Assembly (NCBI GenBank): GCA_964394435.1
Contig: CAYMXN010000002.1
Coordinates: forward strand, 78,196-142,195
Reading direction: 5' to 3'
From: an uncultured Candidatus Saccharibacteria bacterium
GTDB lineage: Bacteria; Patescibacteriota; Minisyncoccia; UBA6257; 1-14-0-10-44-23
DNA: 64,000 nt
The notes below the pieces were generated by a model. The model made no database searches and was not told the origin of the DNA. It saw only the letters and a program-made list of their open reading frames with translations. This document shows positions 5,383-45,042 of this stretch, one piece after another (position 1 is the first letter of the stretch; the number at the start of each line of letters is the position of its first letter). The position numbers and the translations under genes are program-made.

Positions 5383-8300
5383 CTATATTTTCCTTAGACC
5401 AATCCAGATCGGAGCATCGTCGAGCTTGCTCTCAAGCTGAATATCAAACTTTTCTGATTTCTTCATCTCGAGCTGCCCCGCACCCACCGCTTTCTTAAGT
5501 TGGATGGAGTTGCGCTGAACAACATCAAACAGTTTATCAGCGGCCTCAATCATCAGTACAATCTCGTCGCCAACCTGATACCCGGCGTCTTGGCGCAATC
5601 CCTGAATCGTACGTACAAGCTCACGTACCATACCCTCTTCTTTGAGTTCGGCGGTAAGCTCGGTGTCGAGGATAATCCCCTTGCCTTCAGGAAGCTGCTC
5701 GGCAAACAAAATCTTTTTGACGTTAATTTCGTCTTTGAGAATCGCCATCAGCTCATCATCGGCGTACTCTTCAAATGCACCCTTTTTAATCGTTGCGGAA
5801 GCGAGTGGCTGGCGAACCTTAAGCTTGAGTTCAGCACGCAGAGCGAGAGCTTCAGCGGCCAACGCGCGCACCTTCGCCATTTTTTGTGGCAGTAGCTTAT
5901 CCTCCTCATCACCCTCTTCGGCAAACGTCGGCCAGTCAGCGAGGTGGACTGATTTCTGTGCGCCACCTACCGACTGATACAACGCGTCGGAGAAAAACGG
6001 CATAAATGGAGCGAGCAAACGACTGATTGTTTCGAGTGCGAGACGCAACGTATGCGAAGCTGCCTCGTGGTCTTGCTCCTCGTCAGTGCTTCCCGATTGG
6101 AAACGATCGCGACTTCGACGGATATACCAGCGCGAGAGATCGTCAGCAAACGCTTCGATTAAACGGCCAGCCTCGCCAATCTGATACGCATCGAGCTTAG
6201 TCGTCACCTCTTTAGTGAGTGTGCTTAGCGAAGCGAGAATCCAACGGTCGAGTACGTGCTTAATCTTCGGCTCACCCTTACGCGCACTCTCATGTTTTCC
6301 ATAACTATTCCAAAATACAAATGAGTTGTAGATGATGAGAATAAACTTGCGCGTGATTTTAGCTAGATCGTCTTCAGTAAAGCGCTTTGAATCACCTGGG
6401 TCGTTGATCGTATAGAAGTACCAGCGCAGCACGTCGGCTCCGTACTTTTTCATAATCATCATCGGATCGACGATGTTCCCCTTACTCTTGCTCATCTTGA
6501 TACCGTTTTTATCGAGCACTAGACCAAGACAGATGACATTTTTATACGCTGGTTCAAGACCGAGTGCGGTCGACATTGCCAAGAGTGTATAGAACCAACC
6601 GCGCGTCTGATCAACTGCTTCGGCGATATAATCGGCCGGATAGTCGAGTTGCTTAAATAACTGCTTCGCCTCTTCGGAAGTTGGTCGCTTGCCGTCTTTA
6701 GTGAGTGCGTACGGGAAGTTTACTGATGCGTATGGCATCGCTCCAGACTCGAGCCAGACGTCGAGCACCTCTTTAATACGCTGCATCGGTTTTTTACAAG
6801 ATGGACATGCGATATGCACCTCGTCGACAAACGGACGGTGTAAATCAAGCGCACCCTCTCTGTTTACCGGCCAGTTGTTAACCGTAAGTTCTTTGTGATG
6901 ATCATGCGCTGGATAGTAATCAGAAGCGAGTGCCTCTTCATTAGTCATTCCCCGTAAGCTTGCATCGAGCAGCCAGAGTGGGTCACCATGACCAACGATG
7001 ACAATACGCTTATTGCTGTATTTTTTATTAACGTCATTAAAGAAGTCCATCATGCGCTTGCGCACTTCAGTGAGCGTCTCCGCCTTTCCCTTTGGACGCA
7101 CCGTAAAACGCTCCAACTTGTTATTGAAGAACGCGTGATACGCTGGAACCATCGCCCGGTTGTACTCACCTACCTGAATCTCACCAATACGCTTATCAAT
7201 AATCACCTTTGCCTTAGTCGCTTTTGCGATGATTTTTGCGGTCTCTTTCGTGCGAGCGTACGGCGAACAGATAATAAGATCTATTTTTTCTTTCTTGAGC
7301 TTGCCAGCAATATTTTCCGCCTGTCTGACTCCCTTTTCGGTAAGGTGCGAAGCGTTTTTGGCTGTCTCGACTCCGGAAGCTATCCAGTTTTCAACGTTAT
7401 GCTGCGCCTCGGCGTGACGCACTGCAAAGAAACGATTATGACTGACTGCGCGGTCGTTAAGCTCCTGTCGTCCGCTGATTACGATATGCTTTTCGCAATC
7501 TGCGCACTCCCAAATTGGAATTGGCGCACCCCAGTAGCGATTGCGCGAGATAGACCAGTCTTTCAAATCTTTTAGCCACTCACCAAAACGCCCCTCCTTA
7601 ATATTTGCCGGAGTCCAGTTAATCTTTTGGTTGTTCTTGAGCATCTGGTCGCGCAACTTGCTCATCTCAATAAACCAGGAGCTGCGAACCATATACACAA
7701 GCGCACTATTACAGCGCCAGCAGTGTGGATACTCGTGCTCGATCTCGCCCTGCTGATATAACAACCCACGCTTAATCAAATCGGCAACAACGTCGCTATC
7801 CGCTTGCTTGATATACTTTCCAGCGCCTGGATACCCCTTGCCCATCTTGCCCTGATCATCAATGGTCATTGGTAGCCCCTCTTTGATACCCATCAACTTA
7901 AAGTCTTCTTCTCCAAATGATGGAGCGATGTGTACGATACCCGAACCGTCTTCGGTCGAAACGAAATCACCCGCACGGACTTTGTATAGGTCGGCGAGTT
8001 TCAGCTTTGGATGTTTGGCCTTGAGCGGATAGAGCGGGACGTATTTTTTGCCAACGAGTTTTTTTCCAATAACCGCTTCGAGCTCTTTAACCTCATACCC
8101 TTCACGCGCAGCTGGCGTATTGTACGCGTACAAGTACTCGATTGTTCCCGTATCGACTTTCTTTACCTCAAACTTTTTGTACGTCAGCCTTGGGTTAATC
8201 GCCAATGCTAAGTTACCCGGAAGTGTCCACGGTGTCGTAGTCCAGGCCAAGAAGTAGGTTTTTGGTTTTTTCTTCGATGTTCCAGCCTCTTTAAGCTCAA

Positions 8301-8934
8301 ACTTTACGAACAACGATGGGTCTTTAGTTGGGCGATACGCTCCCGGCTGACCAAGCTCGTGGCTACTAAGCGGAGTCTGGCATCGCGTACACCATGGAAC
8401 GGTGCGAAGCATCTTCTTAAGCAATCCGGTTTTATTTATCTCTGATAAGAGCCACCAGATACTTTCGATGTAACGGTTTTCGTAGGTTACATACGGGTTC
8501 TTCATATCAAGCCAAAAACCCATACGCTCGGTGCTCGCCTCAAACTCACTGCGATAGCGCCACACAAGCTCCTTACACTTTGCGTTAAACTCGGCGATAC
8601 CGTACTTTTCAATTTCACTCTTATTTTTCATTCCGAGCTCCTTTTCAGTCTGGAGCTCGACCGGCAAACCGTGCGTGTCCCAGCCGGCTTTACGTGGAAC
8701 GTTAAAGCCACGCATCGTTTTGTAGCGCGGAATGACATCCTTAAAGGCACGCGCCTCGATGTGGTGAATACCCGGCATACCGTTGGCGGTTGGTGGGCCT
8801 TCGAAGAATACAAACTTCTTCCCTCCAGCGGAGTTTTTCTTTAGTGATTGTTCGAAAATTTGATTCTGCTTCCAAAAGGCTAATATCTGATCCTCTAACT
8901 CTGGCAATGAGAAATTTTTAAGATTTTTTAACAT
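5383..8934 (-). CDS. ileS: Isoleucyl-tRNA synthetase with an embedded histidine-phosphatase (PGM/SixA-like) domain.
   Basis: Class I HIGH variant PPTANGMPGIHH and KMSKSKGN. A CP1 editing region is present. The IleS-type zinc knuckle reads WECADCEK...ACPSCKK, followed by DLHRPFVDEV...VLDVWLESG. About 190 aa between the two CxxC pairs carry the RHAEAQHN, SPYARTKETA and IVGHG motifs of the histidine phosphatase superfamily. Confidence 0.85.
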   Translation of the reverse strand: MLKNLKNFSLPELEDQILAFWKQNQIFEQSLKKNSAGGKKFVFFEGPPTANGMPGIHHIEARAFKDVIPRYKTMRGFNVPRKAGWDTHGLPVELQTEKELGMKNKSEIEKYGIAEFNAKCKELVWRYRSEFEASTERMGFWLDMKNPYVTYENRYIESIWWLLSEINKTGLLKKMLRTVPWCTRCQTPLSSHELGQPGAYRPTKDPSLFVKFELKEAGTSKKKPKTYFLAWTTTPWTLPGNLALAINPRLTYKKFEVKKVDTGTIEYLYAYNTPAAREGYEVKELEAVIGKKLVGKKYVPLYPLKAKHPKLKLADLYKVRAGDFVSTEDGSGIVHIAPSFGEEDFKLMGIKEGLPMTIDDQGKMGKGYPGAGKYIKQADSDVVADLIKRGLLYQQGEIEHEYPHCWRCNSALVYMVRSSWFIEMSKLRDQMLKNNQKINWTPANIKEGRFGEWLKDLKDWSISRNRYWGAPIPIWECADCEKHIVISGRQELNDRAVSHNRFFAVRHAEAQHNVENWIASGVETAKNASHLTEKGVRQAENIAGKLKKEKIDLIICSPYARTKETAKIIAKATKAKVIIDKRIGEIQVGEYNRAMVPAYHAFFNNKLERFTVRPKGKAETLTEVRKRMMDFFNDVNKKYSNKRIVIVGHGDPLWLLDASLRGMTNEEALASDYYPAHDHHKELTVNNWPVNREGALDLHRPFVDEVHIACPSCKKPMQRIKEVLDVWLESGAMPYASVNFPYALTKDGKRPTSEEAKQLFKQLDYPADYIAEAVDQTRGWFYTLLAMSTALGLEPAYKNVICLGLVLDKNGIKMSKSKGNIVDPMMIMKKYGADVLRWYFYTINDPGDSKRFTEDDLAKITRKFILIIYNSFVFWNSYGKHESARKGEPKIKHVLDRWILASLSTLTKEVTTKLDAYQIGEAGRLIEAFADDLSRWYIRRSRDRFQSGSTDEEQDHEAASHTLRLALETISRLLAPFMPFFSDALYQSVGGAQKSVHLADWPTFAEEGDEEDKLLPQKMAKVRALAAEALALRAELKLKVRQPLASATIKKGAFEEYADDELMAILKDEINVKKILFAEQLPEGKGIILDTELTAELKEEGMVRELVRTIQGLRQDAGYQVGDEIVLMIEAADKLFDVVQRNSIQLKKAVGAGQLEMKKSEKFDIQLESKLDDAPIWIGLRKI

Positions 8935-8961
8935 ATGAAATTTAACGGATAAGTTACGAAT

Positions 8962-8990
8962 TATAAATAAAAAACCGCAAGCTAGTGCGG
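8962..8990 (-). terminator. Intrinsic terminator on the minus strand just upstream of the ileS start.
   Basis: Hairpin ccgcaagctagtgcgg followed by a T-run on the minus strand. Confidence 0.5.
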
Positions 8991-9081
8991 CGCGACATCA
9001 CCACAACTAGCTGTATATCAGACAGCAATCGTTGCTATTTCCTATTCCTATGTACATCAACTATAGCAAAAATCTATATAC

Positions 9082-9124
9082 ATGCAAATAATAAGTGCCT
9101 TGTCGAAAGAGCCCGACAAGGCAC
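9082..9124 (-). terminator. Intrinsic terminator for the GC-rich sigma-like gene.
   Basis: Hairpin with an 11-bp stem (gtgccttgtcg-aaagagc-ccgacaaggcac) followed by UUAUUAUUU on the minus strand. Confidence 0.6.
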
Positions 9125-9132
9125 GATATAGA

Positions 9133-9723
9133 TCACTCTCCGAGAAACGACTCAAGCTTCCTGCGACGAACTGGGTGCTGAAGCCTTCGGACTGCTTCGA
9201 GGCATAGTTGCCTAACCCGCTCTCGGCTTAGACCTATTTCTCGCCCGATTGCCGCATGGGTCATTCCTTCAAGAAAATGCTTGCGAACAATCAAAGCATC
9301 CTTTGGGTTGAGCGTTCCAAGCACCTTCCCGATTAATGCACGAAGCTCCTTCTGCTCGGCTCCTTCACTCGCCGGCCCGGCGGGAAGAGTAGCAAATGCA
9401 GTCGCGCGCCCCAACATCCTCACAGGAATAGCTCGCGTCGCCTCGAAGGTCTTCGGCGTGGTTAGGAACTCTTGCGTGAAGACTTTCTCCGGCCAAAGCT
9501 CGGAAACGCTCTTCCTGGTTAATTCGAAGAGCTTCGCCGCCACCAGCGGACTGACCTCCTTCGGTCTTTTCCGCATATTGACCCACCGCCCGAATGTGAC
9601 ATGATCCACTCCGACGAATTCTGCGCCCTGCTTTTGCGTCCAGCCACGCCTGCGCAACGCCTCCCAGAGGATGCCGTGCTTAAGCTGTGCGCGGATTGCG
9701 ATCGGAAACCTTGATTCGGACAT
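9133..9723 (-). CDS. GC-rich cassette gene encoding a DNA-binding protein with an XRE-like HTH and a sigma-70 region-4-like HTH.
   Basis: The C-terminus THAAIGREIGLSRERVRQLCLEAVRRL matches sigma70 region 4.2. The N-terminal WTQKQGAEFVGVDHVTFGRW is HTH-like. GC content is high against the surrounding DNA. Its own SD is GGAGG with a 5-nt spacing, and a TTGACG-N17-CACAAT promoter lies at about 9745-9775 on the minus strand. Confidence 0.55.
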   Translation of the reverse strand: MSESRFPIAIRAQLKHGILWEALRRRGWTQKQGAEFVGVDHVTFGRWVNMRKRPKEVSPLVAAKLFELTRKSVSELWPEKVFTQEFLTTPKTFEATRAIPVRMLGRATAFATLPAGPASEGAEQKELRALIGKVLGTLNPKDALIVRKHFLEGMTHAAIGREIGLSRERVRQLCLEAVRRLQHPVRRRKLESFLGE

Positions 9724-28991: not shown

Positions 28992-29026
28992 ATGAAGTAT
29001 GAATTATGAGTTATGAATTATGAAAA
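28992..29026. repeat. Array of five tandem 7-bp iterons (ATGARTT), 5 nt upstream of the RNase start codon.
   Basis: ATGAAGT ATGAATT ATGAGTT ATGAATT ATGAAAA. The same architecture recurs at 36271-36305, 39269-39303 and 44321-44355. Confidence 0.7.
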
Positions 29027-33647: not shown

Positions 33648-35354
33648 CTAGTGGCTACCTTTAGTAGTAATCTTTTTAGCCTCCATCGCTGCGGGCGCGG
33701 CATAAATACTCTTTTTCTTTACAGCAGCTTTAATAAACTCCCTAAACAATGGATGTGGGTGTAGTGGGCGGCCGAGGAGTTCCGGGTGCGACTGCGTACC
33801 GACAAAAAACGGGTGCACTTCACGTGGAAGCTCGGCGATCTCCATAAGCCGACGGTCCGGCGATACACCGGAGAAGATTAATCCTTTTTTCTCAAGGCGG
33901 TCGATAAATTTCGGGTTTACTTCGTAGCGGTGGCGGTGGCGCTCGATAATACGCTTTGCTCCATACGCTTCCATCGCGATAGTATCTGACTTGAGGAGCG
34001 CCGGATAGTTACCGAGGCGCATCGTCGCGCCATAACGCTTATTAATAATATTTTCGCGTTGCTCGGGGAGGATATCGATAACCGGGTAGCCGGTTTTCGG
34101 ATCAACCTCGGTCGTACTGGCTCCGCCCATACCGGCGACATGACGGGCGAACTCAACAACGGCGAGCTGCATACCATAACAAAGGCCGAAGTATGGAATC
34201 TTTTTCGTGCGGCAGTACTCGATAACATTAATCTTTCCTTCAATGCCACGACTCCCAAATCCACCAGGAACGATAATACCCTGATACTGATCGAGCTCTT
34301 TAAGCTTTTCTTTATCTTTTTCAAATGTTTCGGCATCTAACCAAGCGATTTCCGGCTTCCTCCCCTGGTCATAGGCGGCTTGGCGAACTGCTTCGATTAC
34401 TGAAATATATGAATCGGCGAGCACAAATCCTCCGGAGGTAAAGTACTTTCCCACAATACCGATCTTAACGGTCTGCGTGGCTTTGCGAATCTGTTGCACA
34501 AAACCCGCCCACTCTCTTAGGTCTGGCTTACGCGGACGCATCTTAAACTTCTCTAAGATTAAATTACCGAGGCCGTCTTTTTCAAAATTGATTGGCACTT
34601 CGTAAATACTGTTCACATCCGGAGCGGCGATGACATCTTGCTCGCGGACGCTGCAGTTAAAGGCGATTTTCTCTTTGCGCATCTTATCGATCGCCACTGC
34701 GGCGCGAGCGATAATGATATCCGGTTGGATACCGGCGGAGTTTACTGAGCGGACTGCGTACTGCGTTGGTTTACTCTTAAGCTCGCCATCCTTCATCCAA
34801 GGCAAGTGACTTACTAATACAAATAACGCGTCTTCCGGTTGGCGAACTTTTAGAATACGATACGCTTCGAGGAATAAAATGTTCTGATACTCCCCGACCG
34901 TGCCTCCGATTTCGATAACCACAAAGTCCGCCTTATCTTTTTTGGCGGCAAAATGAATCTTGTCCAACACTGCCATCGGGATTTCCGGCACTACTGACAC
35001 ACACTTCCCTTTGTACTCAAGATTGCGCTCTTTGCTAATAACCGACAGATAAATACTGCCGGTAGTCATATAGTTGGCGGAACTCAAATCTCTGTTTAAA
35101 AAGCGCTCGTAGTTGCCCAGGTCTTGGTCAGTTTCCATTCCGTCCTTGAGTACAAAGACCTCTCCGTGCTCAACTGGGTTCATCGTGCCCGCATCTACGT
35201 TTACATACGGGTCAATCTTCATTGCGCTGACGTTAAATCCACGGGACTGCAATATCTTGGCGATGGACGATGCGGCAATACCTTTACCGACGCCACTCAT
35301 TACGCCTCCTGCTACAAAAATATATTTTGTCTTGTGGTTAACTTTTTTTGCCAT
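33648..35354 (-). CDS. pyrG: CTP synthase.
   Basis: N-terminal KYIFVAGGVMSGVGKGIAASSIA and the C-terminal GATase GLCYGMQLAVVEFARH. Confidence 0.9.
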   Translation of the reverse strand: MAKKVNHKTKYIFVAGGVMSGVGKGIAASSIAKILQSRGFNVSAMKIDPYVNVDAGTMNPVEHGEVFVLKDGMETDQDLGNYERFLNRDLSSANYMTTGSIYLSVISKERNLEYKGKCVSVVPEIPMAVLDKIHFAAKKDKADFVVIEIGGTVGEYQNILFLEAYRILKVRQPEDALFVLVSHLPWMKDGELKSKPTQYAVRSVNSAGIQPDIIIARAAVAIDKMRKEKIAFNCSVREQDVIAAPDVNSIYEVPINFEKDGLGNLILEKFKMRPRKPDLREWAGFVQQIRKATQTVKIGIVGKYFTSGGFVLADSYISVIEAVRQAAYDQGRKPEIAWLDAETFEKDKEKLKELDQYQGIIVPGGFGSRGIEGKINVIEYCRTKKIPYFGLCYGMQLAVVEFARHVAGMGGASTTEVDPKTGYPVIDILPEQRENIINKRYGATMRLGNYPALLKSDTIAMEAYGAKRIIERHRHRYEVNPKFIDRLEKKGLIFSGVSPDRRLMEIAELPREVHPFFVGTQSHPELLGRPLHPHPLFREFIKAAVKKKSIYAAPAAMEAKKITTKGSH

Positions 35355-36261
35355 TGTGGGTTTGGCATTTCGGGCAGAAATGCGCCGATCTCCCTCCTAC
35401 TGTAATCCTTTTGATAGGAGTTGCGCAACGTTGACAAGGTTCATCTTCTCTTTGATAAACAAGTCGATGTCCCGTATACCCACCCTCTTTGCCACTAGGG
35501 TCACGAAAGTCGGAAGTCGAGGTACCACGCAACTCAACAGCCTTTGATAGAACTGCGCGCATCGCTTCATAGATAGCGGACAGTTCGTCGGTCTTGAGTT
35601 TATTCGCCGGGCGGCTTGGATGGACGTGGGCGCGCCAGAGGATATCGTCGGAGTAGATGTTGCCGATACCGGCCAGTACATATGGGTCCATCAGCACCTG
35701 CTTAATTGGTCGGTGTTCGTGCGTGATGATATCTGCGAAAATCTCCTCGGTAAGCTTTGGGTCGAGCGCGTCTGGCCCGAGTTCGGCGAGCTCGGGGAGT
35801 GATTCGATTTGTTCGCATGGCCCGAGCAGCACCTTTGCAAACTTGCGCACATCAGAAAGTCCGAGCATCTGCCCGTTATCTAAATACAAAATCAGATGCA
35901 CGTAGCCGTTATATGAGTCTTCGATTATCTCTCTTGGTTCGAGTGCGACCGCCCTACCGCCTACAATCTCCCACTTCCCAATTAAAAAGTGGCCGGTCAT
36001 TTTTTGATGTACAAGTAGAAGTTTGTCGCGCGTAAGGTCGATGAGGATATTTTTCCCTTTGCGACGGGCGCCGATTATTTTTTCACCAATGATATCTTTT
36101 TGAAACTTTGTGACTGCGGACTCTGATATATGCAGCCGAGATTGGTTGAGTGGATCTTTAATCATCTTCGGCCAGTCAAACCAAACACCGACAATAACGC
36201 GCCCGGTGAGTCGGTCGCGCAAATCTCTTACCACAGTTTCTACTTCGGGAAGTTCGGGCAT
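35338..36261 (-). CDS. mutM: Formamidopyrimidine-DNA glycosylase.
   Basis: N-terminal MPELPEVETV with the catalytic Pro2, and a C-terminal zinc finger CQRCATPIKRITVGGRSAHFCPKCQ. The track ORF extending to 36309 reads through the iteron array and is unlikely. Confidence 0.85.
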   Translation of the reverse strand: MPELPEVETVVRDLRDRLTGRVIVGVWFDWPKMIKDPLNQSRLHISESAVTKFQKDIIGEKIIGARRKGKNILIDLTRDKLLLVHQKMTGHFLIGKWEIVGGRAVALEPREIIEDSYNGYVHLILYLDNGQMLGLSDVRKFAKVLLGPCEQIESLPELAELGPDALDPKLTEEIFADIITHEHRPIKQVLMDPYVLAGIGNIYSDDILWRAHVHPSRPANKLKTDELSAIYEAMRAVLSKAVELRGTSTSDFRDPSGKEGGYTGHRLVYQREDEPCQRCATPIKRITVGGRSAHFCPKCQTHNGKKS

Positions 36262-36270
36262 AAGGGGGGG

Positions 36271-36305
36271 ATGAGTTATGACGTATGAATTACGAACTAT
36301 GAATA
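36271..36305. repeat. Array of five 7-bp iterons, 10 nt upstream of the mutM start.
   Basis: ATGAGTT ATGACGT ATGAATT ACGAACT ATGAATA. The first 26 nt are identical to 39269-39294. Confidence 0.7.
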
Positions 36306-36371
36306 ACAAAGAAGAGACCTTTAGCTGTCAGCTTAAAGCTTTTGGGAATAAATACAAAGCAAGCGAAGATA

Positions 36372-36400
36372 TTGACATTATATAGAATAGAATGTATAAT
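36372..36400 (+). promoter_or_regulatory. Consensus sigma70 promoter TTGACA-N17-TATAAT.
   Basis: ttgaca-ttatatagaatagaatg-tataat. Confidence 0.65.
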
Positions 36401-36481
36401 ATATTTGCTCGTAACCTAGCACCTTTGCCCATTGGCGCTGGTGCGCAATCCTACCTCCAAGAGACAGGAAAGGAGTTCCCC

Positions 36482-36970
36482 GTGAAGAAGATCCGGATCG
36501 GCAAAAAACTCGCACTACTCCTCCGCGCGCTTCCGAAGATTATCGAGGCCGCCCTCAAAGAGCGGTTCCGAGAGGTTGATGAATGGGAGTTCTATCATGT
36601 CGCCAGTCGAGCCGAAGCCCCTCCCGAATACAGAGAGCCTCTCGCGGACAATGCAACAGAGGAGGAGGTTGATGAGTGGCACATGCGCCAAAATGATTGG
36701 CGCTTCGATGACTACCTGTGTACTGCCTCGATCTCCTACAACGGGCACATCCAGGTGCGCGGCAAGATCGAAATCGAGGAGTGGTTCGCGATCGGATATG
36801 ACCCGATTGTGAACGCGACTCTATGGATCTGCCTGCCCGACGGAACGCAGATTCGCAAGGCGTTCCGCTATGACGAGCGGACTAGCCACCTCGCCGAAGA
36901 AAATGATGAGAAGATTCCGGAGAGCCCGCCGGAAGAGATCCCCTTCGACAAATCGAAGAGTGCAGCGTAG
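36482..36970 (+). CDS. GC-rich cassette gene encoding a hypothetical acidic 162-aa protein.
   Basis: GTG start with SD GGAAAGGAG 7 nt upstream; high GC. The ATG at 36392 overlaps the -10 box and is unlikely to be the start. A terminator follows. Confidence 0.5.
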   Translation: MKKIRIGKKLALLLRALPKIIEAALKERFREVDEWEFYHVASRAEAPPEYREPLADNATEEEVDEWHMRQNDWRFDDYLCTASISYNGHIQVRGKIEIEEWFAIGYDPIVNATLWICLPDGTQIRKAFRYDERTSHLAEENDEKIPESPPEEIPFDKSKSAA

Positions 36971-36980
36971 GAAGTCACGC

Positions 36981-37015
36981 CCCCGACCAGACAGCTGGTT
37001 CGGGGCTTTTTTATT
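36981..37015 (+). terminator. Intrinsic terminator.
   Basis: ccccgaccagacagctggttcgggg followed by cttttttatt. Confidence 0.7.
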
Positions 37016-37105
37016 CGAATGAGAGGAGAAGCGGGGCGTGATCTGAAACCTCGTCAGGCAAAATCTGAAAGTCATTTACCTGCACCCCTGGAGATACGAA
37101 GATAT

Positions 37106-37152
37106 AGTCAGGAAATCTCTGACCACGGTTTCTACTTCAGGAAGTTCGGGTA
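37106..37152 (-). repeat. Duplicated fragment of the mutM 5' end (about codons 1-15).
   Basis: About 40 of 45 nt are identical to 36215-36261: the fragment reads ...aaatctctgaccacggtttctacttcaggaagttcgggtat against mutM ...aaatctcttaccacagtttctacttcgggaagttcgggcat. In the copy ATG has become ATA. Confidence 0.6.
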
Positions 37153-37161
37153 TGAAAAGTG

Positions 37162-37911
37162 CTATTTCTTTGGGGTCCTCCCAAGAAGCTTGTCGATTTC
37201 CTCCTTGTTGAGATTGATTCTATCTTCTTCGGTCATAAGAGCCCTTGGGGCTAAAGGCTTCCACACTTGATAGAGCCGTACGACATGAGGAAAATTTCTT
37301 TGATAGAAGTTTTTTAACACATAAAGCATAATGGCGTTTGTCTCTACCACTTCAATGAATGGATAATGAATTGCTTTATATGCTTCATGTTCTGAATTCT
37401 CGGGTAAAAGTATTTTTGCGGATAATTCTTCAAGCATATTCAACATATCAATAATTATCCTTTGCAATTTCATGTTTTTAAAAATATCTTCATTATATTC
37501 TTTGAATTTTTTGCCAAATGTCTCAATTTCTTTATCGGAAAGAGATGTTATGTCTTTTAATGAGAAGGTAGTTCCTCCGCTGAGTGACCCTAAGTTTATC
37601 ATTTTTACATTTTCATCTTTTACGCTGTCAAATACTTTTTGATTCAGAGGAATAATCTCTTCCCTAAAAAAATTCAAGACGCCCAAGACAGACTCGTTAG
37701 CATTTCTTTTTCTTTCTTCATGCAGATCAATCAGCGATACTAATATTGGTATTACACCTAAAATACCAATCGTAGCTAAAATTGCTTTTGCAGCTTCTCC
37801 TAAATCTCTGATAACCTCACTTGGCAACTGAGGGATTATAAAATAAGTTAATAAGCTGACTGCAAATACATCTATCGCTACCCATGTAAAAATTTTTTTA
37901 TATGACTTCAT
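37162..37911 (-). CDS. Hypothetical membrane-anchored protein in an AT-rich region.
   Basis: N-terminal TM helices; low GC compared with its neighbours. Confidence 0.45.
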   Translation of the reverse strand: MKSYKKIFTWVAIDVFAVSLLTYFIIPQLPSEVIRDLGEAAKAILATIGILGVIPILVSLIDLHEERKRNANESVLGVLNFFREEIIPLNQKVFDSVKDENVKMINLGSLSGGTTFSLKDITSLSDKEIETFGKKFKEYNEDIFKNMKLQRIIIDMLNMLEELSAKILLPENSEHEAYKAIHYPFIEVVETNAIMLYVLKNFYQRNFPHVVRLYQVWKPLAPRALMTEEDRINLNKEEIDKLLGRTPKK

Positions 37912-37914
37912 AAA

Positions 37915-39240
37915 CTACTCCGCCTCGTACACGCCGACTTCTTTTTGAGGGACTAACGATGGGTCGGTCGGAATCGTAAAGTGAAACTCGGTGCCACGCC
38001 CTACTACTGATTGCGCCCAAATCTCGCCGCCGTGCTGCTGAATAATGTTTTTAACCAAGTATAAGCCAAGGCCGGAGCCGGTTGCGTCGAGCTTAATCGC
38101 CGCTTCGGTACGGAAGAACTTCGTAAATAACTTTTTAATCTCTTCGGGCGTGATGCCAACGCCAGTATCTTTGATTACCACTTCGACAAACGGCTTGCTG
38201 ACAATTTGGTGAATGCTGACTACGACTTGGCCGTTTTCCACATTGTACTTAATCGCGTTATCAATCAGGTTGGAAAATACAATTCCCATCTTAGCCTGGT
38301 CGAGTAGAACCATAATCGGCGTGGCCGGTTTTTCGAAATATACGTTTACTTTATACTGCTTGGCGATTGGAGCCGCCTCCTCAACCACCTTGCGCGTGAA
38401 GTCGACGAGGTCAGCATTTTGATAGTTATAGCCAAACCTCCCCTCTTCGATTTTTGCCACATCTAAAAAGTCGTTGACGATACGGGATAATTTCTGGGCA
38501 GCCATCGCGCCGGTTTGCGTGAGCTCGATACGATCCTGATCTGAAATACCAACTTGCTGAAGCTCTTGAAACGCCCAGTTTACTGCGGTTAGGGGCGTAC
38601 GAAGTTGGTGGCTCGTAATGGTAACAAACTCGCTCTTTGCTTTGAGGAGATTCATCTCGCGCGTGCGGTCGTGAATTACTTTAATCACACCCGTCTGCTG
38701 CCCATTTTTATCAGTCATCGGCATCGTCGCCACACGTAGTTGCATAAACGGTTGCTCAAACACAATGTCGACAATTTGCGGATACGCGCCCGGGTCGCTG
38801 CGCTTAATAATCACTGGAGCGAGCGATGGAAATAGCACCTGGGAAAGCAACTTGTGTTGCGGGTTTTGATTTGCGGATTCGAGTGCGAACTTTTTTCCCA
38901 CCATCTCCTCTTGTGGAATGCGGAACAACGTTGACGCGGCTTTATTAAAAATATGTACCGTAAACTCGTTGTCATGCACGATAACTGCATCTTCAAGACC
39001 GGTAATAACTGTGTCGAGCATCTGGTGCTCGTTTTTCAGCTCGAAATTGCTACGTGCGGTGCTAAGCGAACCGGCAAATAACAGAACTCCAGCGCCGATT
39101 AAGACAACGAGTCCGATGAGCCCCCAGATTGGTGGGAGATAGAAAAAGTCGATGATCGCCATTGCTAAAAATAAAACGGCGAAAATCCAAACGACCCTCA
39201 TCTCTGGCATTTTTGCGTATTGAGTAAATCCACGCTTCAT
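37915..39240 (-). CDS. Sensor histidine kinase with a PAS domain.
   Basis: Two TM helices, a PAS-like region, the H-box HQLRTPLTAVNWA, and the N/G boxes of the HATPase domain. No adjacent response regulator. Confidence 0.75.
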   Translation of the reverse strand: MKRGFTQYAKMPEMRVVWIFAVLFLAMAIIDFFYLPPIWGLIGLVVLIGAGVLLFAGSLSTARSNFELKNEHQMLDTVITGLEDAVIVHDNEFTVHIFNKAASTLFRIPQEEMVGKKFALESANQNPQHKLLSQVLFPSLAPVIIKRSDPGAYPQIVDIVFEQPFMQLRVATMPMTDKNGQQTGVIKVIHDRTREMNLLKAKSEFVTITSHQLRTPLTAVNWAFQELQQVGISDQDRIELTQTGAMAAQKLSRIVNDFLDVAKIEEGRFGYNYQNADLVDFTRKVVEEAAPIAKQYKVNVYFEKPATPIMVLLDQAKMGIVFSNLIDNAIKYNVENGQVVVSIHQIVSKPFVEVVIKDTGVGITPEEIKKLFTKFFRTEAAIKLDATGSGLGLYLVKNIIQQHGGEIWAQSVVGRGTEFHFTIPTDPSLVPQKEVGVYEAE

Positions 39241-39268
39241 ATACTTATATTTAGGATAACACAGGAAA

Positions 39269-39353
39269 ATGAGTTATGACGTATGAATTACGAGTTATGA
39301 GCGACGAGAAAATCTCAGTCATAATTCATAACTCTTACTTCGTTATTCATTAC
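39269..39353. repeat. Inverted pair of five-iteron arrays separated by a 15-bp spacer.
   Basis: The forward array is ATGAGTT ATGACGT ATGAATT ACGAGTT ATGAGCG (39269-39303). The inverted array is TCATAAT TCATAAC TCTTACT TCGTTAT TCATTAC (39319-39353). It sits between the kinase start and the stop of the exonuclease gene. Confidence 0.65.
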
Positions 39354-40219
39354 AGCTCCTCCAGCTGACGAATCAGACTGCTAAACGCGTATTTTTCAAA
39401 AAACGCCTTCAGCGCAACTTTATCAAACGGAAGCACTTTCGCGTCTTCAATTGAGTCGATAAAAATGGGCGCGTTGCGATGAATCGTTGCGAGGTCGCGG
39501 CTCATCAGGGCGATTTCTTTTTTGCCCTCGAACTTTTTTGCAATTTTCGGATTAACAATTACGAGATTGTCATAAATCTCCTCGATGGTTTTAAACTCCT
39601 GAATCAGTGGTGTGGCGGTTTTTGGACCCACCCCTTCTACGCCTGGAATATTATCCGAGGTATCACCAATTAATCCCTTGAGCTCAATGAGTTGTGCTGG
39701 TGCGAGGCCGTACTCCTCTTTCACGTGCGCCTCGTTATACTCAACCGTCTCATTACCGCCATTACGCATCAAGCGAACTACCACGTGGTCATCATCGACA
39801 AGCTGAAGCAGATCGCGGTCTCCGGAAAGAATCACCACCTGCGTACCTGGTTGGCGCTTGAGTTTTTCAGCGAGCGTGCCGATCAAGTCGTCAGCCTCAA
39901 AACCCGGCAAATCAAACTGTTTGATATGAAACGCGTCAAAGACTTCGCGGATTTTCGCGAGCTGACTCACGAGGTCGTCTGGCATCGGCTGGCGATGTGC
40001 CTTATACTCTTCGTATTTCTCTTTACGAAATGTCCGCTCTTTGCGATCAAAACACGCGATAATATAGTCAGGATTAATATCGTGATAAATCTTCAGTAAG
40101 AGTCCGGCGAGGCCGTATACCGCGCCGACCGGCTCATTTTCCGGACTAGTGAGTGGCGCCATCGCGTGATACATCCGGTAGATGAGTGCGTGTGAGTCAA
40201 TTAAGAGGAGCTTCTTCAT
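39350..40219 (-). CDS. 5'-3' exonuclease (FEN / Pol I 5'-nuclease domain family), stand-alone.
   Basis: N-terminal MKKLLLIDSHALIYRMYHA and a downstream HhH2 region; 289 aa. Confidence 0.75.
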   Translation of the reverse strand: MKKLLLIDSHALIYRMYHAMAPLTSPENEPVGAVYGLAGLLLKIYHDINPDYIIACFDRKERTFRKEKYEEYKAHRQPMPDDLVSQLAKIREVFDAFHIKQFDLPGFEADDLIGTLAEKLKRQPGTQVVILSGDRDLLQLVDDDHVVVRLMRNGGNETVEYNEAHVKEEYGLAPAQLIELKGLIGDTSDNIPGVEGVGPKTATPLIQEFKTIEEIYDNLVIVNPKIAKKFEGKKEIALMSRDLATIHRNAPIFIDSIEDAKVLPFDKVALKAFFEKYAFSSLIRQLEEL

Positions 40220-40325
40220 CCCGTTAGAGGTTAATTGTGTTATTAGCTATCATACCCTATTTGTCCGTATTTATTAATTTCTAACAAAATCGCCCCACCT
40301 CCATGAGAGATGCGGCGATCTTGGA

Positions 40326-40796
40326 TTAAATCCCCTTCACCTTCGCACTGCGAACTCCGTCTTTTACTCCGTGGGCGAGCTCGATCCAGATGGTGTTTTT
40401 GGGAAGCAGCTTTTTAAACTTATCCGCCCACTCGATGATGACGATATTGTGCGGCTCGCTGAACATATCTTTAAGCCCAAGTGCTAACAACTCCTTATCA
40501 CTATCAATACGATACGTATCGATGTGGTATGCGGTGTGATGACTATTGGCGGAAAGTGCGTACGGCTTTACGAGTACAAACGTTGGACTCGTAATGCGTC
40601 CGCGTGCACCGAGCGCCTTGAGAAAACTTTGTGTAAACGAAGTCTTACCCGCACCCAACTCACCCACCAAACCGATGACCGTGCCCTGTTTTGATTTTTT
40701 GGTTGAGCTCGATACTTTTTCAGCGATTGATTGCGCAAACTTTTTTGTAGCAAGCTTATTAGCTAAATGGATTATCTTTGGATTGGTCGTTTTCAT
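40326..40796 (-). CDS. tsaE: tRNA threonylcarbamoyladenosine biosynthesis ATPase TsaE.
   Basis: P-loop GELGAGKTSFTQSFLKALG and a conserved SPTF motif. Confidence 0.75.
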   Translation of the reverse strand: MKTTNPKIIHLANKLATKKFAQSIAEKVSSSTKKSKQGTVIGLVGELGAGKTSFTQSFLKALGARGRITSPTFVLVKPYALSANSHHTAYHIDTYRIDSDKELLALGLKDMFSEPHNIVIIEWADKFKKLLPKNTIWIELAHGVKDGVRSAKVKGI

Positions 40797-41274
40797 GTAT
40801 CTTGTTATACACGATAGTGGCGATAGTTGCTAGAGCTATGGCGACACATAGTCCAAATATATAGACCTGCGAGCTGACTCCCCCGCCAATCTGCTCGGGT
40901 AATTTCTTAAAAGCGAGGTCATCAAACATTTGAGCTTTGAGTTCGGGCGTGAGCTCGGTAATATGACGAACAATATACCCTTCGGCGGCAGTACCCGCGT
41001 AACTCAACGTATCAATAACGCTTCCTGACGCGTCGATAAGCGAAACTGTCTCGCCACTATTACCTAAACTAATTTTTGTTACTGAACTTTCAAATTTAAG
41101 CGACTGCCCGGCGGACAAGATAAACCCATTGAGATTAAATGACTTCCCAGACGCGTCTTTGAGCTGCCAGCCAGTTAAGCTTACTGAAGAGTCGTCTGTA
41201 TTTTTAATGACAATATACTCCCCTGCGCTATCTTTGCCGACGGGATTGGGAAGAAATGAGTCGATGAGAACCAT
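40759..41274 (-). CDS. Lamin-tail-domain (LTD) protein with a C-terminal TM.
   Basis: FLPNPVGKDSAGEYIVIKNTDDSSVSLTGWQLKDASG matches the LTD signature. Confidence 0.55.
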   Translation of the reverse strand: MVLIDSFLPNPVGKDSAGEYIVIKNTDDSSVSLTGWQLKDASGKSFNLNGFILSAGQSLKFESSVTKISLGNSGETVSLIDASGSVIDTLSYAGTAAEGYIVRHITELTPELKAQMFDDLAFKKLPEQIGGGVSSQVYIFGLCVAIALATIATIVYNKIHENDQSKDNPFS

Positions 41275-42624: not shown

Positions 42625-44313
42625 TTAGCGCAAACCGAGAATTGGTCCGGTGACGTTTTCAACCTCGGCAAAACTCGTCTCTCCCTCGAGTGCTTTTAAG
42701 ATACCGGCTTGCTGTAAGGTTACGAGCCCTTTGCTTAGTGCGAACTTCATAATCTCTCCTTCGGTCGCGTGACGGTTAATAAGCTCCTCAAGCTCTTCGC
42801 CTACTTCCAATAACTCAAAGATGCCGAGGCGACCACGGTAGCCGCTCATATGACACTGATCACACCCTTGGTCGTTTGCCTCAAAAAGCTTAGGTACTTC
42901 GTACGGTTTTTTATTAACCCGTGCCGGAAGTGATTCAACTATTTTCTGAATTTTAGCGAGCAACTCTGGCGTCGCCTCTTTTGGTTTGCGGCACGTCTGA
43001 CAGAGTCGGCGGATTAAACGCTGCGCGATAATTAAATTAAGTGCTGGGCCGATACTGGTCTGTGGCGCGCCTAAGTCGAGTAAACGCGGGATAACGCCAG
43101 CGGCGGAGTTGGTGTGTAGCGTTGAAAATACAAGGTGACCGGTGAGTGCGGCTTGAATAGCGATTTCGGCTGTGTCTTTGTCGCGGATCTCACCAACGAG
43201 AATCACGTCCGGGTCTTGGCGCATCATCGCCTGTAGACCGTTACTAAAGGTGTACCCGCTGCGTAGATCAACCTGTGTCTGCTCAATGCCAGTCAGGTGG
43301 TACTCGATCGGGTCTTCAATAGTGATGATTTTAATTTCTGGGCTCGCTACCTTACGCAAAAATGCGTACAGCGTCGTCGTCTTACCCGAACCAGTTGGAC
43401 CGGTGTTTAGAATCATTCCGTTTGGCGCTTTAAGCTGATCTTCGACAATCGCGAGATCATCTGGGCGCATACCCAGGTCGGCCATTTTTAACTGAATAAC
43501 GCGTGGATCTAAAATACGCATAACGATTGTCTCGCCAAACTCCGATGGAATAACTGAAATACGTAACTCGATTTGTACGCCACCTAATCCAACTGTAAAA
43601 CGTCCGTCTTGTGCGACGTTGGTGATATTTAAACGGAGACTGGCGAGCAGTTTAATACGGGAAAGCAACAAGTGATACGTCTCTTTTCCAAAAGCGGCGA
43701 CCACATCACGGAGTACGCCATCAATACGGTAGCGGAGACGAACTCCTTGCTCGCCTGGCTCAAAGTGAATATCTGAAGCGCGGTTGGTAAGTGCGCCGGC
43801 GAGTACGATATTTAATACTTCACCCGGGGCTGGGTTGTTGGTTAGAAGCGAAACAAACGCCTCTTCTACTTTTATCAAACTTGTCAGTTGCTTCTCGAGT
43901 TCGAGCACGCGTTCCGGCTCGATATCCATACGCGCGGAAACACTTTCGGTTTGTTTTGGTACGAATTGATAAAACGTCAGAGCGTACTCAAAGCTCGCGG
44001 GCGAAATGATAAATGTTTTCACAATCATTCCCTTCTTAGCGAGATCGGCGCTTACCTGCTTCACCTCATCACTCTCTGGATTAATGGCCGCGAGGGCGAC
44101 CAGATTATTTTTTTGCTCAAAAATAACAGCGTGCGCTCGTTCTGCCTGTTCTTTAGAAATGAGCTTGAGCGCATCAATCTGAACTGCGGTCTTAGTCAAA
44201 TCAAGATACCCCACGCGTTCTTTCGCAGCTTCTCGCTCGGTTAAGCGTTCGGCAGATGCGCGCCAAATCTTCTTGAGCTGTTCATCGAGTTTAGGATCTT
44301 TGTTGGGAATCAT
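42625..44313 (-). CDS. Type II/IV secretion system ATPase (GspE/PilB family).
   Basis: Walker A GPTGSGKTTTL, Asp/His boxes, and a C-terminal tetracysteine motif CQTC...CDQC. Confidence 0.8.
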   Translation of the reverse strand: MIPNKDPKLDEQLKKIWRASAERLTEREAAKERVGYLDLTKTAVQIDALKLISKEQAERAHAVIFEQKNNLVALAAINPESDEVKQVSADLAKKGMIVKTFIISPASFEYALTFYQFVPKQTESVSARMDIEPERVLELEKQLTSLIKVEEAFVSLLTNNPAPGEVLNIVLAGALTNRASDIHFEPGEQGVRLRYRIDGVLRDVVAAFGKETYHLLLSRIKLLASLRLNITNVAQDGRFTVGLGGVQIELRISVIPSEFGETIVMRILDPRVIQLKMADLGMRPDDLAIVEDQLKAPNGMILNTGPTGSGKTTTLYAFLRKVASPEIKIITIEDPIEYHLTGIEQTQVDLRSGYTFSNGLQAMMRQDPDVILVGEIRDKDTAEIAIQAALTGHLVFSTLHTNSAAGVIPRLLDLGAPQTSIGPALNLIIAQRLIRRLCQTCRKPKEATPELLAKIQKIVESLPARVNKKPYEVPKLFEANDQGCDQCHMSGYRGRLGIFELLEVGEELEELINRHATEGEIMKFALSKGLVTLQQAGILKALEGETSFAEVENVTGPILGLR

Positions 44314-44320
44314 TTTGGAG

Positions 44321-44355
44321 ATGAATTATGAAAAATGAGTTACGAGTTATGAGAA
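44321..44355. repeat. Array of five 7-bp iterons, 7 nt upstream of the pilB-like start.
   Basis: ATGAATT ATGAAAA ATGAGTT ACGAGTT ATGAGAA. Confidence 0.7.
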
Positions 44356-44418: not shown

Positions 44419-44447
44419 TTGACATTTATATTAATCTGTGCTATATT
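44419..44447 (+). promoter_or_regulatory. Near-consensus sigma70 promoter TTGACA-N17-TATATT.
   Basis: ttgaca-tttatattaatctgtgc-tatatt. Confidence 0.6.
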
Positions 44448-44491
44448 ATTTTTGTTCTTCAACTTCTAACCCCCGGAGGCAATAGCCTTTT

Positions 44492-44998
44492 ATGCACGAC
44501 CTATCTCCCTGGTGGAAGGGCTTCATCGCCGGCGGACTGTTCATCGGCTGGGCGGTGGCTTGCATCGCGATGACCGTCTGGTTCTTGTACGTACCGTCGC
44601 TGCGAGCCATGGCGTCCAAGACTCTGAAGCGCGCCAGCAAGGCGCTCTGCGTTCTCGCCCTCGGGCTGCTCTCGAGCGGGTGTTCCGCTGTCAGCAGCCG
44701 GGTCAGCCTGGCGACCAACATCCCGCTTATCCGTACCGAGGGGACGATCGTCCGGGTTGTCAACTCGACCGGTGACACGTTGCGCGTACGCGCGGATGGC
44801 CACCCGGAGTTCGCGCTCCCGGCGGGCGAGGAGGTTCCGGTCCTGTTCTACGGGCCGGACTACAGTGCCCACGCATGGGGCAGTAGTGCGACCATCGTCG
44901 TCCTTGGTGCGAGCGGCGCGGCGACGCGATCGGTGTCGGTCGCCTCATCGGGAGTCAACTCTGAGGCGTGGATCGTCGGTCACGACGACCTACGCTAG
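44492..44998 (+). CDS. GC-rich cassette gene encoding a membrane or lipoprotein-like 168-aa hypothetical protein.
   Basis: Two N-terminal hydrophobic segments, the second ending LLSSGC (lipobox-like). SD GGAGG. High GC. A terminator follows. Confidence 0.5.
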   Translation: MHDLSPWWKGFIAGGLFIGWAVACIAMTVWFLYVPSLRAMASKTLKRASKALCVLALGLLSSGCSAVSSRVSLATNIPLIRTEGTIVRVVNSTGDTLRVRADGHPEFALPAGEEVPVLFYGPDYSAHAWGSSATIVVLGASGAATRSVSVASSGVNSEAWIVGHDDLR

Positions 44999-45006
44999 CT
45001 CCCTGT

Positions 45007-45042
45007 CCCCCACCAACTCGTTGGTGGGGGCATTTTTATTTT
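45007..45042 (+). terminator. Intrinsic terminator.
   Basis: cccccaccaactcgttggtggggg followed by catttttatttt. Confidence 0.7.

Follow-up and report, generated by a model that had tools for sequence, protein, structure and literature searches.

Several described systems come close to the arrangement analyzed here. Integrases can enter a protein-coding gene and reconstitute the gene end; icd is such a target of phage 21 and of e14, and tRNA and tmRNA genes are targets of islands. Integron cassettes consist of an open reading frame (ORF) and a palindromic attC site. Homology-facilitated illegitimate recombination (HFIR) in the uptake of foreign DNA has been defined (PMC3240628), and the studies of de Vries and Wackernagel (2002), Prudhomme et al. 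(2002) and Meier and Wackernagel (2003) are cited in PMC5361080. The same source (Kirchberger et al. 2017, with the works that it cites) also treats arrays of displaced 'orphan' gene fragments in the effector-immunity loci of Rhs, contact-dependent inhibition (CDI) and type VI secretion systems (T6SS). Here, a duplicated 5' end of mutM, the gene for formamidopyrimidine-DNA glycosylase, was analyzed in a 64,000-nt stretch of DNA of an uncultured Candidatus Saccharibacteria bacterium (contig CAYMXN010000002.1, positions 78,196 to 142,195), hereafter called the window. The organism belongs to the Patescibacteria, and the locus was compared with related mutM loci of its relatives, which are Harrisonbacteria- and Parcubacteria-type metagenome-assembled genomes. 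The distal copy of the mutM start is probably a non-functional scar of an illegitimate recombination joint, by which two kinase–mutM spacer architectures of related Patescibacteria lineages were stacked; HFIR would be the likely process.

A repeat search of the window yielded a direct repeat with 37 of 41 bases identical and a start-to-start distance of 892 nt (Table 1). Copy A is the live start of mutM (ATG CCC GAA CTT CCC GAA GTA GAA ACT GTG GTA AGA GAT TTG on the minus strand), and copy B is the dead one (ATA CCC GAA CTT CCT GAA GTA GAA ACC GTG GTC AGA GAT TTC). The homology sets in precisely with the start codon and runs to codon 14, and a weaker stretch with one indel may extend it to codon 16. 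The longest exact run common to both copies comprises 11 nt, and the sequences upstream of them are unrelated to each other. On one side, copy B lies 8 nt past the stop codon of gene X, an ORF that follows a histidine kinase gene. On the other side, it is joined directly and out of frame to EEP', a remnant of a nuclease gene of the Exo_endo_phos (EEP) family. The first-pass annotation had described the second copy of the mutM 5' end at 37106–37152, with about 40/45 identity and at a distance of about 850 bp. The copy was found to be real, with the limits, identity and spacing given here, and its start codon was read as ATA in both analyses. To judge the resemblance, 87 mutM starts (related loci and window) were each searched for the best second match to their initial 39 nt. 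With 35 of 39 bases, the window stood apart from all other loci (20–27 of 39). Thus, a chance resemblance of copies A and B is excluded, and the alignment of the proximal and distal starts that had been proposed as a check gave an identity above chance.

All 4 differences between the copies within the 41 nt are located at third codon positions, and 5 when the junction codon TTG/TTC is counted. With a random spread of changes, such a pattern has a probability of about 0.01, and a rate-based estimate predicted about 4–5 changes at first and second positions, while 0 were observed (own calculations). The working mutM start of locus L178 matched the dead copy in 39 of 41 bases, and the variants CCT and ACC of the dead copy are present in it. 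The mutM start of locus L179 matched the live copy in 40 of 41 bases. When polarized with the closest genome, that of locus L012, the changes fell on the branch of the dead copy, yet none at first or second codon positions. Since the differences are confined to third positions and the variants occur in the working starts of L178 and L179, the dead start would for long have been part of a working mutM. It appears to have diverged mostly within the working mutM of a related lineage and to have been cut off recently. Accordingly, the two mutM starts are best read as two alleles from different DNA, which would make the joined segments derivatives of different lineages. The option of a gene start reconstituted by the insert, raised in the first-pass annotation, agrees with this origin of the functional and dead starts from different DNA.

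The simplest route to two copies in one genome would be a duplication in situ: the mutM start would have been doubled by tandem duplication or by slippage during replication, one copy would have decayed neutrally, and other DNA would later have been inserted between the two. This is highly improbable, as the homology begins at the exact start codon between unrelated upstream sequences and as the changes number 0 at first and second positions against 4–5 at third positions. In addition, the dead copy is closer to the working allele of L178 (39/41) than to its neighbor copy (37/41), and the fusion to EEP' would be left unexplained.

The fusion partner of the dead start was characterized by translation. 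The adjoining stretch had PF03372 as its only Pfam match (profile positions 198–225 of 225; E = 0.011, under the gathering cut-off with 35 aa left); the dead mutM start would thus run, in another frame, into the last part of a nuclease/phosphatase-family gene, a fusion that the first-pass annotation had not noted. EEP' carries the C-terminal block of the EEP superfamily (DYI...SDHxP), its frame differs from that of the dead mutM start, and its stop codon abuts a hairpin. The reading frame of the dead start runs into the out-of-frame EEP sequence and reaches a stop after 25 codons. Beyond the hairpin, and convergent with EEP', lies ORFc, the gene of the GC-rich cassette between the two mutM starts. 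A related arrangement was found at locus L176 (356–1767). There, P0124, an ORFc homologue with 30% identity, is preceded by a promoter (TTGACA-17-TATAGT) and a hairpin-rich leader and followed by a terminator, and a full-length 240-aa Exo_endo_phos gene is convergent with it. The C-terminus of this EEP protein aligned with EEP' up to the last residues (residues 208–239 of 240; 34% identity over 32 residues; pairwise BLASTP E = 6e-6). On account of the convergent P0124–EEP layout and of this alignment, EEP' would be a vestige of the neighbor gene of ORFc.

The surroundings of mutM in relatives gave a reference for the arrangement in the window. The usual order is exonuclease – kinase – mutM – pyrG, and in more distant relatives it is kinase – response regulator – mutM. 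Of 167 related loci, 55 have the 3' end of the kinase gene upstream of mutM at a distance of at most 200 nt. Among the related mutM loci and the window, ORFc-type genes were found beside mutM only in the window, L011 and L012. L011 shows kinase, hairpin, ORFc homologue, promoter and mutM, i.e., one cassette, and it has neither gene X nor a dead start. L012 is about 85% identical to the window at the nucleotide level (amino acid identities: kinase 95%, pyrG 97%, mutM 89%). Here, the kinase stop (GAATAA) abuts the same hairpin, which is followed by two divergent cassettes of the ORFc family, each ended by a hairpin; gene X and the dead start are absent as well. L179, about 95% identical to L012, is an empty site composed of kinase, hairpin, 7 nt, a 38-nt block and mutM. 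The double cassette of 1110 nt occupies L012 1521–2630, and L179 has the hairpin only at 606–620, although the two lineages are about 95% identical at the nucleotide level.

Owing to the empty site in L179, the cassette can be delimited as a separable unit. It is a genuine presence–absence unit that can be inserted or deleted, and its indel boundaries lie about 100 nt upstream of the mutM ATG, between the hairpin and the 38-nt block, and not at the mutM repeats. The first-pass annotation had taken the cassette to be an insertion into the 5' end of mutM, with the duplicated start as its footprint. In the first respect, the presence–absence behavior agrees with an insertion, but the boundaries (36360–36976) lie upstream of mutM and away from the repeats. 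In the second, a footprint of a rearrangement at the mutM 5' end is retained as a recombination scar, but not as a cassette insertion inside mutM, given the boundaries elsewhere and the fusion to EEP'. The cassette was also not upheld as a certain newcomer, since L011 and L012 carry it at the same place without gene X and without the dead start. For the same reason, gene X and the dead start may be the newcomer. Closer relatives were sought in JGI metagenome contigs, where the best mutM identity was 63%, which was of no help for polarity. An ancient scar common to L011 and L012 was considered as well and excluded by the recent cut-off of the dead start.

These boundaries also bear on the insertion of a mobile cassette in the mutM 5' end with a target-site duplication of about 41–47 bp and decay of the distal copy. 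Such an event could account for direct repeats that bracket the cassette and for a cassette that is present or absent in relatives. It is nevertheless most improbable. First, the 4 mismatches among the 41 positions of the repeats are all third positions, and both variants serve as working alleles elsewhere, namely as the start of mutM in the related lineages of L178 and L179; on these grounds the target duplication named as one option in the first-pass annotation was discarded. Second, the left repeat abuts the truncated EEP gene and not the end of an element. Third, the boundaries defined by the empty site (36360–36976) lie about 100 nt upstream of the mutM ATG, and L011 and L012 have the cassette without the duplication. 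Moreover, no transposase is present, and we know of no described transposon family with target duplications of about 40 bp.

With regard to integron cassettes, the likeness is found in L012, where two small ORFs are each followed by the same hairpin, in the empty site, which keeps one hairpin, and in a cassette content that varies between close strains. However, the mutM-proximal cassette has its own consensus promoter and leader (for the second cassette of L012, no clear one was seen). The hairpin is a terminator with a GC stem and a T-run and occurs once in the 64-kb window, and neither IntI nor attI was found in the loci examined.

The scar anatomy, the allelic starts, the neighborhood in L176 and the empty and occupied sites point to a recombination process and to two parental states. 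Allele 1 would have had the order kinase – gene X – (8 nt) – mutM, in which the stop of gene X is followed by CACTTTTC and then by ATGCCCGAACTTCCTGAAGTAGAAACCGTGGTCAGAGATTTGCGCGAC..., i.e., by an intact mutM after gene X. Allele 2 would have contained the EEP nuclease gene reading towards the hairpin terminator, ORFc with its promoter reading towards the same hairpin from the opposite side, and mutM next to that promoter; at its junction a full-length EEP gene would have read into GAATAAAAAAGCCCCGAACC. The joint would connect mutM codon 14–16 of allele 1 to a point 33–35 codons before the EEP end of allele 2. The product would be kinase – gene X – mutM'(1–14) / EEP'(tail) – hairpin – ORFc – promoter – intact mutM. 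In the likely process, HFIR of imported DNA, one end would have been anchored in a conserved gene and the other joined without homology. The illegitimate joint of HFIR is typically found at 3–10 bp of microhomology, and the process presupposes that the organism can take up DNA (natural competence). As to the homologous anchor, both partners carry mutM (37/41 in the starts), and the kinase gene, as an alternative anchor, is conserved in relatives.

Two directions of the event may be considered. In the first, the hairpin/cassette module would have been resident, and kinase-anchored DNA would have brought in gene X and the first mutM codons and deleted most of EEP. This direction is suggested by the presence of the hairpin/cassette module in L011, L012 and L179 and is judged slightly better than an even prospect. 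In the second, which corresponds to that of the first-pass annotation, kinase – gene X – mutM would have been resident, and DNA anchored in mutM would have added the tail of EEP, the hairpin, ORFc with its promoter and a new start of mutM; it is judged to fall just short of even. In both, as in HFIR, the window would be joined on one side via a conserved gene (mutM or kinase) and on the other in mid-gene without homology, with foreign DNA added and resident DNA, i.e., most of EEP, possibly deleted. Unlike in HFIR, the process in the window is deduced from a natural scar, and the joint lies inside the homologous gene, hence the duplicated 41-nt piece.

Several observations weigh against a recombination joint of this kind or limit how far it can be traced. 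The 41-nt segment is short and highly constrained, and the allelic argument rests on 4–5 sites. Identity profiles of the 5' part of mutM and the 3' end of the kinase gene against L012, L178 and L179 revealed no clear breakpoint or tract, and with no breakpoint in the kinase or mutM anchor, no direction can be read from them. The joint lies at 37110–37118, where GAC is a candidate microhomology. Allele 1 alone, with gene X directly before an intact mutM, was not found in any lineage, nor was a close relative with an intact EEP gene beside the hairpin. Finally, the GAATAA before the hairpin ends EEP' in the window but the kinase gene in L012 and L179. This overlap would require a coincidence or an extra microhomology-mediated deletion in the L012/L179 lineage, which would then have lost EEP by deletion between two Glu-stop ends.

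The arrangement in the window was compared with Logan contigs, i.e., independent assemblies of several sequencing runs. L004 and L007 cover 35835–41240 with 100% identity, and L005, L008, L009 and L010 cross parts of it. Among these, a 5406-nt contig of another run extends from mutM to beyond the kinase gene with 100% identity, and the junctions between gene X, mutM', EEP' and the hairpin are crossed by four further contigs from other runs. Since independent contigs cross the junctions with 100% identity, the arrangement is no assembly artefact. A chimera of two mutM starts from two co-occurring strains, merged by the assembler, would fit two starts that are allelic variants, both present in natural populations, and several Logan contigs do terminate within the region. 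Its probability is practically negligible, as the 5406-nt contig and four others from other runs span the junctions and as the longest exact shared run (11 nt) is too short to mislead a k-mer assembler. Exact-protein look-ups for an empty-site allele of the window strain returned only contigs 100% identical to the window.

To see whether similar scars occur elsewhere, short direct repeats were scanned in all fetched loci, which led to L069 (10370–11276). At this locus, a 26-codon pseudo-start of holA, with 11 synonymous and 2 non-synonymous codon differences relative to the real start of that gene, is fused to a C-terminal fragment of mutM (...RSAHFCPRCQTF and stop). It is followed by a membrane-protein ORF of 226 aa, a paralogue with 24% identity to an upstream ORF of 250 aa (8018–8770), and then by the real holA. 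L069 would thus be an independent analogue with stacked alternative insertion alleles of the type 'start of right-hand gene, end of left-hand gene'. Because holA in L069 shows the same scar, mutM is not claimed to be a special hotspot.

L069 also allows a comparison with the orphan arrays of effector-immunity loci. As in these, an incoming module displaces a resident one and leaves a fragment behind, so that alleles are stacked and fragments of conserved ends are repeated; the same stacking is seen in L069 with its two paralogous membrane-protein genes. In contrast to these arrays, the piece repeated in the window comes from a housekeeping gene of DNA repair, namely its 5' end, and not from the end of a toxin gene, a single stacking step is present, and a toxin-immunity role of ORFc and EEP would be hypothetical.

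Two further loci have a mutM pseudo-start upstream of the real start. In L158 (513–650), the pseudo-start MPELPEVQTIVNDLNK is followed by a hairpin with an 11-bp stem. In L159 (422–625), an element of about 110 nt comes after the pseudo-start LPELPEVETTIR and has the 14-bp inverted ends AACCCCGCCCCCTA and TAGGGGGCGGGGTT. Pseudo-starts and real mutM starts differ mostly by synonymous changes, and the pseudo-starts begin with ATG or TTG. A search for close relatives of L158 and L159 for polarizing them gave none above 74% identity.

These pseudo-starts count in favor of a remnant of an integrase-mediated element with its att site in mutM codons 1–14 and a replacement gene start, from which the integrase and most of the cargo were later lost; such elements are classically recognized by direct repeats that differ synonymously and by a target gene left intact. 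As in the icd-type integration, the repeats differ at synonymous sites and the target is kept intact by a replacement end. Unlike in that type, the window has no recombinase and no defined element ends, one repeat is fused to a truncated gene, and the cassette boundaries lie elsewhere. An integrase element is therefore regarded as very unlikely: the 892 nt between the repeats contain no recombinase and, as the sole ORF, ORFc, which has no Pfam, PHROG or PADLOC match. The junction lies in the middle of the EEP coding sequence, so that a deletion would have had to begin exactly at the att boundary, and neither ORFc nor gene X has a relative in IMG/VR. Gene starts other than that of mutM are also found duplicated (holA in L069), and no recombinase-bearing element was seen between such repeats among 170 sequences (related loci and window).

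That selection has retained the distal fragment for a function, e.g., as a decoy, a regulatory RNA element or a small upstream ORF, can hardly be credited. It would be in line with the coding-like conservation of 14 codons and with the ATG or TTG of the pseudo-starts in L158 and L159, but the fragment starts with ATA and has no ribosome-binding site, has no match in Rfam, and is missing in L012, L178 and L179, the closest relatives; moreover, its frame enters the out-of-frame EEP sequence, with the stop after 25 codons. The fragment does nothing today. The cassette, in turn, separates mutM from the kinase operon by a hairpin and by the promoter region of the oppositely directed ORFc.

Table 1. 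Coordinates (window positions) of the features around the two mutM starts
Feature	Position	Strand	Remarks
mutM, functional formamidopyrimidine-DNA glycosylase gene, 307 aa	35338..36261	-	Pfam domains; collinear with L012 from the ATG, 86% nucleotide identity
Copy A, live mutM start, codons 1-14	36221..36261	-	repeat search; comparison with L179
Heptamer array, ATGARTT x5	36271..36305	+	before the live mutM start; same array upstream of other minus-strand genes
Conserved block upstream of mutM, with palindrome AGCTGTCAGCT	36322..36359	.	38 nt; 94.7% identical to L179 614-651
Cassette proper (indel relative to the L179 empty site)	36360..36976	+	promoter, leader and ORFc; absent from L179
Cassette promoter, TTGACA-17-TATAAT	36372-36400	+	12/12 consensus matches
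Structured leader of ORFc	36401-36481	+	leader hairpin with one compensatory pair
ORFc, 162 aa	GTG 36482 to stop 36970	+	ribosome-binding site AAAGGAG; alignment to P0002, P0124 and L012a
Hairpin CCCCGACCAG-ACAG-CTGGTTCGGGG with T-run, terminator of ORFc	36981..37011	+	retained at the empty site L179
EEP', putative pseudogene remnant, last 33-35 codons and stop of an Exo_endo_phos nuclease gene, RFPDYIFVSPGVQVNDFQILPDEVSDHAPLLLSFE and stop	37011..37118	-	translation, Pfam, BLASTP
Copy B, dead mutM start (ATA), codons 1-14	37113..37153	-	repeat search, translation; comparison with L178
Gene X, 249-aa AT-rich ORFan, hydrophobic N-terminus	37162..37911	-	between kinase gene and dead start; starts 3 nt after the kinase stop
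PAS-HisKA-HATPase histidine kinase gene	37915..39240	-	Pfam; directly upstream of mutM in many relatives

The live mutM encodes a protein with the features of Fpg/MutM, i.e., the N-terminal catalytic motif PELPEVE, an H2TH domain and a C-terminal zinc finger. Its Pfam matches were Fapy_DNA_glyco (3.6e-24), H2TH (1.6e-26) and zf-FPG_IleRS (1e-9), all three above the cut-offs. The last 140–170 nt of the gene (35338–35510, overlapping the pyrG start at 35354) are 95–100% identical to L012, third positions included. The remainder of mutM is about 80% identical to L012, and codons 175–240 are near saturation with a third-position identity of 0.36–0.38. The conserved 3' end could be either a recombination tract or a conserved pyrG leader or promoter inside mutM.

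Upstream of the live start, the first-pass annotation had described an iteron array as part of the insert. Five heptamers do exist there, but such arrays are also found at other gene starts. They occur upstream of the minus-strand genes starting at 8934, 28986, 39240 and 44313; together with the one at mutM, the arrays were located at 8949–8966, 28992–29023, 36271–36305, 39269–39300 (+) with an inverted copy close by at 39316–39350, and 44321–44352, with AAYTCAT on the sense strand. The heptamer pattern gave 12 hits in the window against 0.03 expected, and no fewer than five minus-strand genes have it directly in front of their start. The array is thus a motif at several sites of the window and not part of the insert, and it is possibly a motif of the 5' untranslated region or a protein-binding motif. 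Upstream of mutM, it is absent in L012, L178 and L179. Tandem Repeats Finder (score 30) reported no tandem repeat at the array, which is visible only as a degenerate heptamer pattern. By eye, heptamer-like arrays with other unit sequences were seen upstream of mutM in L013, L018, L026 and L051.

Between the array and the cassette, the 38-nt block is also present in L012 and L178 and is retained at the empty site of L179. At the other end of the cassette, the hairpin is single-copy in the window, and the 39 nt of its region (36978–37016) are 100% identical to L012 1482–1520; L012 has a second copy of the hairpin. When the hairpin and the leader were searched as dispersed repeats, each was found once in the window. 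The leader of ORFc (window 36401–36481; L011 940–1026; L012 2500–2588, minus strand) is better conserved than ORFc itself. It forms a predicted hairpin GCACC..GCCCATTGGC..GGTGC, and a second stem overlaps the ribosome-binding site; the folding energy is unexceptional (z = -0.5). No Rfam family was assigned to the leader, and the region 36200–37200 gave only sub-threshold chance matches in Rfam.

The ORFc family is very rare. A word-indexed search of 5.8e9 proteins returned ORFc itself and P0002 (61% identity), and only P0124 and P0125 were gained when 1.84e9 cluster representatives were searched with a profile. Searches of Pfam, PHROG and PADLOC gave no match. An AlphaFold model from 2 sequences had a predicted local distance difference test score (pLDDT) of 52 and was unusable. 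The model from 4 sequences reached a pLDDT of 78, and Foldseek found no match for it in PDB or BFVD (best E 0.49 and 0.068). P0125 is encoded at L177 (335–2368), has a C-terminal extension of about 100 aa and is divergent from a gene with an SLFN_AlbA_2 domain. As a speculation, the contexts in L176 and L177 might hint at a nuclease-associated or defence-like role of the ORFc family.

A second GC-rich cassette with the architecture of the ORFc cassette is located at 44420–45040, with a promoter TTGACA-17-TATATT and a hairpin terminator CCCCCACCAACTCGTTGGTGGGGG with a T-run. Its ORF (44492–44995; 167 aa; GC 0.66; GC at third codon positions (GC3) 0.83) has no Pfam match and is divergent from the gene of a T2SSE-type ATPase at 42628–44313, which was identified via synteny with a Pfam-annotated gene of L011. 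In L011, the slot of this second cassette is taken by an unrelated ORF of 447 aa (7910–9253) with no Pfam match.

Gene X has the lowest GC content of the 60 ORFs of the window (0.34, with a GC3 of 0.32; mean 0.47, standard deviation 0.05) and is absent from L011, L012 and L179. The word-indexed search of 5.8e9 proteins returned only gene X itself, and no relative was found in IMG/VR. It has no credible match in Pfam, PHROG or PADLOC and does not resemble the genes that precede mutM in 78 relatives.

As the process behind such a joint is already known, the result is a well-documented example and offers no new principle. More unusual leads are the rare ORFc–EEP module and the lineage-specific heptamer arrays. 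In the only other fully resolved context of the cassette ORF (L176), an EEP nuclease gene adjoins. It is conceivable, if rather unlikely, that ORFc and the convergent EEP gene form an undescribed strain-variable two-gene module, e.g., a nuclease and an inhibitor or immunity protein, that travels between Patescibacteria as a promoter–leader–ORF–terminator cassette, and that allele stacking at packed gene boundaries, as in the window, L069 and perhaps L158 and L159, is a major route of ORFan gain in reduced genomes. With regard to the window, the cassette is recast as a unit that can be separated from its surroundings, lies between a hairpin and a conserved block, and is missing at the empty site of a sister lineage. 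The scar would show how an ORFan gene and a rare cassette met inside the conserved order exonuclease – kinase – mutM – pyrG. It would thereby provide unusually direct sequence-level evidence of between-lineage recombination in uncultivated Patescibacteria, in which the routes of gene gain are poorly documented.

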